Source: Bacteroidota bacterium (GTDB taxonomy: Bacteria > Bacteroidota > Bacteroidia > Chitinophagales > LD1). From it: a stretch of DNA of 64,000 bases. The notes beneath the pieces were generated by a model, which saw nothing but the letters and a program-made list of their open reading frames with translations, had not been told where the DNA came from and made no database searches. How positions within the stretch are numbered: the stretch's first letter is position 1; every line of letters starts with the position of its first letter. Below are positions 5,149 through 6,073 of the stretch, piece after piece. The DNA lies in assembly GCA_947475165.1 (NCBI GenBank), contig CANJLD010000008.1, positions 88,841-152,840 on the forward strand. The letters run 5' to 3'. The position numbers and the translations under genes are program-made.

Positions 5149-5989
5149 ATGCTTGTAAAATTATTCGGCAGTGCGGTTTATGGGGTTGATGCGGCCACAG
5201 TTACTGTAGAGGTAAGTGTAGAAACAGGACAGAATTTTTTTATGGTTGGTTTGCCCGATAACGCCATTAAAGAATCGTGGCACCGAATGGAAACCGCTAT
5301 TAAGCACAATGGTTTTGAAATGCCGCGCAGAAAAATTGTTATCAATCTCTCCCCGGCTGATGTGCGCAAAGAAGGAACCGCTTACGACCTTCCTGGTGCT
5401 ATAGGAATTTTGGCAGCCTCCCATCAAATTGAAACTACCCTGCTTGATAAGTATGTTATCATGGGAGAGCTTTCTTTGGATGGAACTATTCTTCCCATTA
5501 AAGGTGCATTGCCAATTGCAATACAAGCGCGCAAAGAAAAATTCCAAGGATTTATTCTACCCAAACAAAATGCTCGTGAAGCAGCTATTGTAAACAACAT
5601 AGAAGTGATAGGTGTTGAAACATTACGCGATGTAATTGAGTTTTTAGAAGGCAGAGAAAAAATTGAACCAACAGTAGTTGACACCCGCGCTGAATTTGAC
5701 AACAATATTTTAAAGAGCGAATTGGATTTTTCGGATGTGAAGGGGCAAGAAAATATTAAGCGCGCTTTAGAAATTGCTGCTGCTGGCGGACATAATGTAA
5801 TTCTGATTGGTCCACCGGGTGCTGGTAAAACTATGCTAGCAAAACGTTTCCCAACTATTCTTCCTCCCCTTAGTTTGAACGAAGCTTTGGAGACAACCAA
5901 GATTCATTCAGTAGCAGGAAAACTTGGAAAAGATTGTGCGCTCATTTATCAAAGACCTTTTCGTTCGCCACACCATACCGTGTCAGATG
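5149..5989 (+). pseudogene. comM: ComM/YifB Mg-chelatase-family AAA+ ATPase, 5' fragment interrupted by an integrative element (ORF reads on 8 aa into the element, stop at 6015)
   Basis: MLVKLFGSAVYGVDA, GLPDNAIKES, Walker A GPPGAGKT, PFRSPHHTVSD; homology breaks at codon 280. Confidence 0.93.
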
Positions 5990-5993
5990 ATAA

Positions 5994-6010
5994 TGTAAAG
6001 TTGTTTCAGT
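5994..6010 (+). repeat. attL inner arm (17-bp inverted repeat)
   Basis: tgtaaagttgtttcagt is the exact reverse complement of 13220-13236. Confidence 0.92.
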
Positions 6011-6073
6011 ATTGATAATCAGATAGTTATAAACTAACCAAAGTAAAAAGTAGTTTCAGTTCAACGGTAAAAC

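Follow-up and report, generated by a model that had tools for sequence, protein, structure and literature searches.

A large serine recombinase and its att sites at a very small comM island of a freshwater Chitinophagales bacterium, with all four att forms found in metagenomes

The stretch of DNA analysed here (the window) comprises 64,000 nucleotides of contig CANJLD010000008.1, from a Bacteroidota bacterium of the order Chitinophagales (GenBank assembly GCA_947475165.1). Within it the competence gene comM (yifB) is split by an insert of 7,257 bp (5988-13244), with a GC content of ~32% compared with ~41% in the flanks, that encodes a large serine recombinase (LSR). GATG stands at both boundaries of the insert (5986-5989 and 13243-13246), and because the bases adjoining the two copies are unlike (a/t before, a/c after), the common core is exactly 4 bp. 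The genes and predicted attachment (att) sites at the two junctions are as follows.

5149-5987, plus strand: comM/YifB 5′ fragment, residues 1-279 and the GA of Asp280, with ChlI and Mg_chelatase domains
5963-6010: attL, composed of the attB left half (5963-5985), GA (5986-5987) and the attP right half (5988-6010)
5986-5989: GATG core at attL, containing the putative crossover dinucleotide GA (5986-5987); 4 bp common to 13243-13246
5994-6010, plus strand: left arm TGTAAAGTTGTTTCAGT, the distal part of which is the family motif TTGTTTCAGT, ending 23 nt from GA
11468-13177, minus strand: large serine recombinase (integrase), 569 aa, with Resolvase, Recombinase and Zn_ribbon_recom domains
13220-13267: attR, composed of the attP left half (13220-13242, with the arm at 13220-13236), GA (13243-13244) and the attB right half (13245-13267)
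13245-13944, plus strand: comM/YifB 3′ fragment, matching TIGR00368 at positions 277-499

Taking the insert out restored a 512-aa comM/YifB reading frame running through a 19-residue stretch, with the 5′ fragment matching TIGR00368 at positions 2-277 and the 3′ fragment continuing from position 277. In the integrated state the 5′ fragment reads on to a stop at 6015, giving a protein of 288 aa. At its right end the element contributes an ATG in frame (13237), two codons ahead of the comM Asp codon, so that the 3′ fragment becomes an intact 235-aa open reading frame (ORF; 13237-13944, plus strand) upon integration. Among the relatives searched, comM was uninterrupted in 35 of 40. The target codon of the nearest relatives with an empty site is GAC or GAT, and GA is thus kept.

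The 569-aa protein has the domain order of an LSR (PF00239 at residues 15-162, PF07508 at 186-299 and PF13408 at 319-376). Residues Y16, R18 and S20 of the YxRxS motif, together with the zinc-ribbon cysteines C326, C329, C348 and C358, were invariant in 21 homologues, and residues 261-500 matched a chain of the A118-type integrase structure 4KIS (E=3e-7). The closest LSR homologues were 54% identical at most.

The two ends of the insert carry the arms TGTAAAGTTGTTTCAGT (5994-6010) and ACTGAAACAACTTTACA (13220-13236), which are 17 nt long, 100% complementary and the sole perfect inverted pair of at least 17 nt within 5800-13450. Joining the ends gives actgaaacaactttaca-atgactGATGataa-tgtaaagttgtttcagt, a 48-nt site with a 14-nt spacer and GA at spacer positions 7-8. 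The predicted attP therefore consists of inverted half-sites about a non-palindromic GA (23 + 2 + 23 nt), and its identity with attB is confined to GATG. A first-pass annotation of this DNA, made from the sequence alone, had described perfect 17-bp arms and a 14-bp spacer about GA within a duplicated GATG, and this architecture matches our analysis to the base.

In the reaction that we propose, the LSR would recombine its ~48-bp attP with an attB in comM, centred on the GA of the Asp codon within a 14-residue stretch of the protein. A 2-bp staggered cut at GA in both sites, followed by subunit rotation and religation, would generate attL (5963-6010) and attR (13220-13267), and the non-palindromic GA would fix the orientation of insertion. 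We consider it highly probable that 5988-13244 is an integrative element of an uncultured freshwater Chitinophagales bacterium, inserted into comM by its own LSR.

Evidence for the reaction in nature came from Logan contigs of lake metagenomes aligned to window positions 5000-14200. The exact integrase protein was found on at least 24 metagenome contigs, with the same comM insertion in most of them. In the runs X1, X2 and X4 a 56-nt unitig joined 13217-13246 to 5990-6015, i.e. the attP junction, while X3 and X5 contained the integrated form only. A further Logan contig (L020; 7,287 bp) has a 30-nt end overlap and hence represents a closed cycle of 7,257 bp; it contains ACTGAAACAACTTTACA-TTATCATCAGTCAT-TGTAAAGTTGTTTCAGT, the reverse complement of the predicted attP, and has no branch to comM. 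Empty sites were detected in X10, X11 and X16, where contigs join 5985 to 13243 with 0 mismatches to the flanks, skipping 7,257 bases. Four letters at this joint fit either side, corresponding to the predicted attB with a single GATG, and, the flanks being free of mismatches, chromosomes that are otherwise identical either carry the element or lack it. All four att forms occur in nature, and they are exact and mutually consistent. The earlier proposal of a complete recombinase/attP/attB set is thereby borne out, with the LSR domains identified and both the attP junction and the empty attB present letter for letter as predicted.

Read depths in the three samples containing the attP junction place a circular or head-to-tail form alongside the integrated copy, at ~1/4 to 1/2 of the chromosomal depth.

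X1: attP junction 10.5, flanks 37-41, element 46.2
X2: attP junction 40.9, flanks 81-87, element 112.5
X4: attP junction 24.4, flanks ~43, element 55.8

The flank unitigs of these samples are unbranched through 5989 and 13243, showing that attB is absent from X1, X2 and X4. Surplus copies without empty sites argue against a simple one-off excision. A replicating circle beside an integrated copy, fast re-integration into the empty site, or chromosomal tandems would each fit the depths. If the junction arose from head-to-tail chromosomal tandems rather than from free circles, the element would be expected above flank depth, as it is (1.2-1.35 times in X1, X2 and X4), and no attB need appear, whereas simple non-replicative excision would yield it. 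However, tandems are unexpected for serine integrases, which do not recombine attP with attL or attR and so are not expected to build them. Furthermore, the element encodes a candidate replication initiator (described below), and the closed 7,257-bp cycle found in one run (L020), lacking any branch to comM, fits a free molecule. We therefore regard tandems as an unlikely source of the junction, and, for at least one sample, L020 points to a free molecule.

To place the element within a family, an alignment-based scan was combined with single-protein look-ups, yielding 14 related loci with readable flanks and LSRs 31-54% identical. Eleven of these come from assemblies of Flavipsychrobacter, Mucilaginibacter, Chitinophagaceae, Flavobacteriales and unclassified Bacteroidota, one from another species of the window bacterium's genus (G008) and two from metagenome contigs. 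A scan of genome contigs with a single integrase sequence had returned no match; the alignment-based scan succeeded. Among 301 genomes of the order, two further distant integrase relatives were found, with no comM in their short flanks. At every one of the 14 loci the integrase adjoins a comM fragment broken at residues 273-284, at the same Asp codon, in agreement with the suggestion that the target is a conserved comM codon.

Six elements are complete (the window element, L024, L026, L028, L032 and L033), and in each the attP dyad is centred on the same GA, as had been proposed for the window element. The attP of L024 is symmetric at 28/30 positions about GA. The attL and attR sites of L024, and likewise those of L026, have different bases on both sides of GA, so that GA is the sole identity, also between attB and attP, and the exchange must fall within it. 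In ten half-sites of the subfamily (at least 45% identity) the motif TTGT(T/A)TCAGT has its end exactly 23 nt from GA, and in the window element this distal motif, TTGTTTCAGT, probably represents a fixed contact of the zinc-ribbon domain. The arms are simply a pair of half-sites for a single protein, and the symmetry of L024 is high as well; the earlier view that perfect arms suggest recent or ongoing activity is supported as to ongoing activity, on the strength of the circular junctions and not of the arms.

From the dyad centre and from relatives whose sole common core is GA, we infer that cleavage falls exactly at GA. A crossover at AT or TG would also lie inside the 4-bp identity of the window element, and the attB joint in the metagenomes is ambiguous across the same four letters. 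In either case, however, the perfect arms would stand at unequal distances from the crossover (7 and 5 nt, or 8 and 4 nt), and AT, being palindromic, would forfeit control of orientation. Moreover, L024 and L026 are inserted at the same codon with GA alone in common, and the constant distance of the distal motif is measured from GA in all ten half-sites. An AT or TG crossover is accordingly very improbable.

The integrase gene starts toward the comM 3′ fragment in nine elements, including that of the window, and toward the 5′ fragment in five; in L032 it is the end of the integrase gene that lies toward the comM 5′ fragment. Both orientations are expected within a family if polarity is set by the central dinucleotide alone, a dependence attributed to Ghosh et al. 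2003 as cited in PMC10083194. Genome G008 (L014:780-900 and L015:100-160) carries a different element, inserted the other way round at the same comM codon, with an integrase 39% identical and its gene start beside the comM 5′ fragment. In addition, the comM 3′ fragment ends again at about residue 351-354 (between ...ASMNP and C...) in L026 (9690-9770), L030 (9660-9740) and L033 (660-740), with unrelated DNA beyond, and a second, distant LSR adjoins this break in L026 and L030. It seems that comM holds a second integrase target ~75 codons downstream of the first, with two islands side by side.

The window element encodes a second serine recombinase, adjacent to attL.

6074-6688, minus strand: small serine recombinase of the resolvase/invertase type, 204 aa (PF00239, E=1e-22; phrog_125 DNA invertase, E=2e-38)

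Its location directly beside attL could point to this protein, instead of the 569-aa LSR, as the enzyme of integration and excision. Against this, the LSR adjoins the comM junction in 14/14 relatives with readable flanks, while a tblastn search with the 204-aa protein found no counterpart in L022, L024, L026, L028 or L035. Homologues (67-75% identity) do occur in L025, L027, L031, L033 and L036, but at variable positions, and an unrelated resolvase of 216 aa is encoded at the far end of both L024 and L026. Resolvases and invertases act on half-sites of ~12 bp, whereas a 23-nt half-site with a distal motif suits an LSR. We give almost no credence to the small recombinase as integrator, and assign mobility to the LSR; multimer resolution of the circle is our guess at the role of the smaller enzyme. 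In the circular form (5988-6073 joined to 13178-13244) the small recombinase and integrase genes are arranged head to tail on one strand, with attP in the ~150 nt that separates them. With this order, read-through into the integrase gene would be possible in the excised form only.

The remainder of the element is occupied by a restriction-modification system, a set of repeats and a candidate replication gene.

6728-7594, plus strand: type II restriction endonuclease, 288 aa (PADLOC REase_II PDLC03406, E=1e-67; no Pfam match)
7589-8917, minus strand: type II DNA methyltransferase, 442 aa (PF01555 N6_N4_Mtase; PADLOC MTase_II, E=2e-32)
9724-9813: three 30-nt direct repeats in tandem between genes, CTCGATAAGATTGAATTAACTCCAATCAAT and two further copies (70-73% identity)
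10044-10586, minus strand: candidate HUH (Y1) rolling-circle initiator, 180 aa, from motifs and fold matches

The endonuclease and methyltransferase genes are convergent, and no capsid, terminase or conjugation genes were recognised among the proteins of the element. Cargo of the related comM islands is consistently of the defence type (L024, L026, L028, L032, L033, L035 and L036), comprising CfrBI-like and BglII-like endonucleases with methylases, an Eco57I-type IIG enzyme, a 1,609-aa type ISP enzyme, RnlA/RnlB and AbiU2. L028 also encodes collagen-repeat, fibre-like proteins.

In the 180-aa ORF the motifs HFH (H107, H109) and YHTKQ (Y160, K163, Q164) were invariant in 27 homologues. Its AlphaFold (AF2) model is of high confidence, with a mean predicted local distance difference test score (pLDDT) of 84.7. 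Matches to a viral fold library reached E=3e-4, and those with names include a G2P-domain protein, Rep and parvovirus NS1. No structural match in the PDB fell below E=0.001, the weak ones including HUH transposases and RepB; searches of Pfam and of PDB sequences likewise gave no significant match, and BLASTP detected no similarity to the Rep-like ORF of L026. On balance we lean slightly towards this protein being an HUH rolling-circle initiator. Such an initiator could account for surplus circular copies without matching empty sites, and the repeats at 9724-9813 are iteron-like, making them a possible origin region of the circular form.

Several points weigh against the account given so far. 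Short contigs cannot separate a free circle from a head-to-tail tandem, and the sequence of this element alone cannot separate GA from AT or TG within GATG. The distal (zinc-ribbon) motif of an LSR is expected ~5 bp nearer the centre in attB than in attP. When attP positions 12-24 were compared with attB, the match was 0.39 at a shift of 5 and 0.38 at a shift of 8, above a background of ~0.28; the GGN codon periodicity of attB confounds this comparison, and the 5-bp inward shift is weakly visible. The HUH assignment of the 180-aa protein is drawn from motifs and weak fold matches. Finally, excision by LSRs is expected to depend on a separate recombination directionality factor, and the small ORFs at 10690-11351 (50-103 aa) gave no family match, none being assignable as such a factor.

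Additional motifs lie close to the ends of the element.

6013-6021: small palindrome TGATAATCA, directly after the left arm
6044-6060, plus strand: lone half-site-like copy TAAAAAGTAGTTTCAGT, 13/14 identical over 6047-6060, repeating the left arm in direct orientation 50 nt deeper in the element
13201-13211, minus strand: aagtaaaagta (TACTTTTACTT as read on that strand), 23 nt ahead of the integrase ATG

The first-pass annotation had noted a recurrence of gtttcagt at 6053-6060 and of aagtaaaa(a)gta near both ends, and had proposed both as possible accessory sites. Both sequences are present, the former being part of a longer match (AAAGTAGTTTCAGT at 6047-6060) that is 13/14 identical to the arm and, across the 64 kb, unique apart from the arms themselves. 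If one mismatch is allowed, the 14-nt sequence occurs 3 times in the window compared with 0.08 expected, and none of 100 shuffles reached 3. The part of the proposal concerning aagtaaaa(a)gta fared less well: although aagtaaaaagta stands at 6041-6052 and aagtaaaagta at 13201-13211, the 11-mer with one mismatch gave 4 matches against 2.8 expected, and 29/100 shuffles had as many, which is not above chance. The copy at 13201-13211 may instead be a candidate Bacteroidota −7 promoter box, as TACTTTTACTT resembles the sequence of that box, TAnnTTTG, and a similar TACTTTTAC lies upstream of an ORF in L033. Scans of both ends for sigma-70-type promoters and terminators returned nothing usable, with a tool that does not model Bacteroidota promoters.

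The extra arm-like copy has no partner half and is therefore not a second attP. Consistent with this, the best internal 48-mer match to attP was 26/48, equal to that of shuffled queries, so that the element holds no spare attP. The palindrome TGATAATCA occurs 3 times in the window compared with 0.9 expected, which is weak alone.

Could the extra copy (6044-6060) and TGATAATCA work as an accessory or regulatory site to which the integrase or a partner protein binds, for instance so as to govern transcription crossing attP into the integrase gene in the circle? The non-random occurrence of the copy speaks for this, as does L033, in which TGTAAAGTTGTTTCATT lies 51 nt in from the same end and a TGATTATCA palindrome occupies the place matching TGATAATCA, although its integrase is merely 53% identical. 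L026 also has arm-like copies near this offset; in that element, however, they make up a complete spare attP, inverted, at element positions 40-87 in comM orientation (41/48, 39 nt inside the end, with a centre of GA in its own orientation), such that the lone copy in the window may be a decayed remnant. A second attP-like site of L026 (element 6288-6335, 35/48, centre CC) lies downstream of the integrase gene. Nothing like the extra half-site was found at the same end of L024 (integrase 54% identical), L028 or L032. We also considered the half-site as part of the small-recombinase module and ruled this out, since five relatives have unrelated DNA downstream of that gene; its position outside a conserved module is a further point against an accessory function. 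To our knowledge, characterised LSRs need no accessory sites, and such sites lie outside the accepted picture of serine integrases. The extra half-site is thus real and partly conserved. It may be either a functional accessory site or what is left of a spare attP, and we are doubtful of the former. The fuller version, in which the half-site and TGATAATCA would make up an accessory module by attP, bound by the integrase, the small recombinase or a directionality factor and maybe gating integrase expression or directionality in a circle replicating by the rolling-circle mode, strikes us as improbable.

LSRs that integrate into Mg-chelatase-like or ATP-dependent-protease (ComM/YifB) genes have been described (Durrant et al. 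2022, PMC10083194). Those elements share the target gene family with the window element, and their attP and attB were deduced from element ends in the same way. Here, by contrast, all four att forms were seen directly in metagenomes, beyond prediction, and the element differs in being very small (7.3 kb), without recognised phage or conjugation genes and with restriction-modification and a candidate HUH initiator. In phage WO sr1WO of Wolbachia an LSR likewise integrates into the host magnesium chelatase gene, and gene fragments flank the element (Bordenstein and Bordenstein 2022, PMC9203015). Phage WO is a full temperate phage of an alphaproteobacterial endosymbiont, whereas the window element has no recognised virion genes and its host is a free-living freshwater bacterium of the Bacteroidota. 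Our literature search found no named member from this lineage (metagenome genomes of Chitinophagales, Sphingobacteriales and Flavobacteriales) and nothing relevant tying comM by name to serine integrases, the published term being 'magnesium chelatase'.

The integrase of Listeria phage A118 (LI integrase, 4KIS) has the same domain order and a ~50-bp attP dyad about a 2-bp crossover, and it too splits a competence gene. The two proteins are distantly similar in sequence, and the target gene (comK) and phylum differ. A zinc-ribbon motif placed 5 bp differently in attP and attB was defined for LI integrase; in the window element this shift scores hardly above the 8-bp alternative. Small serine recombinases have been linked to anti-phage defence genes (Andersen et al. 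2026, PMC13552941), and in those systems, as here, a small recombinase of the resolvase/invertase type lies beside a restriction system on a mobile element; unlike in those systems, the large recombinase explains the mobility of the window element.

Target, enzyme class and site architecture were all established previously, and existing knowledge of serine integrases is unchanged by this element. What is specific to it is the lineage, the very small size and a defence cargo common across the family, while the presence of four att forms in public data is unusual; the one feature with a degree of novelty is the extra half-site beside attP, which is partly conserved. From a poorly sampled phylum, the element offers an integrase/attP/attB trio specified in full, with natural evidence of the reaction, and as such is one more candidate orthogonal integrase. 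Its relatives fix the crossover to two bases, giving a worked example of the central dinucleotide setting orientation. For freshwater Bacteroidota, these results indicate that the well-known comM hotspot is used by very small islands carrying restriction and toxin-antitoxin systems.

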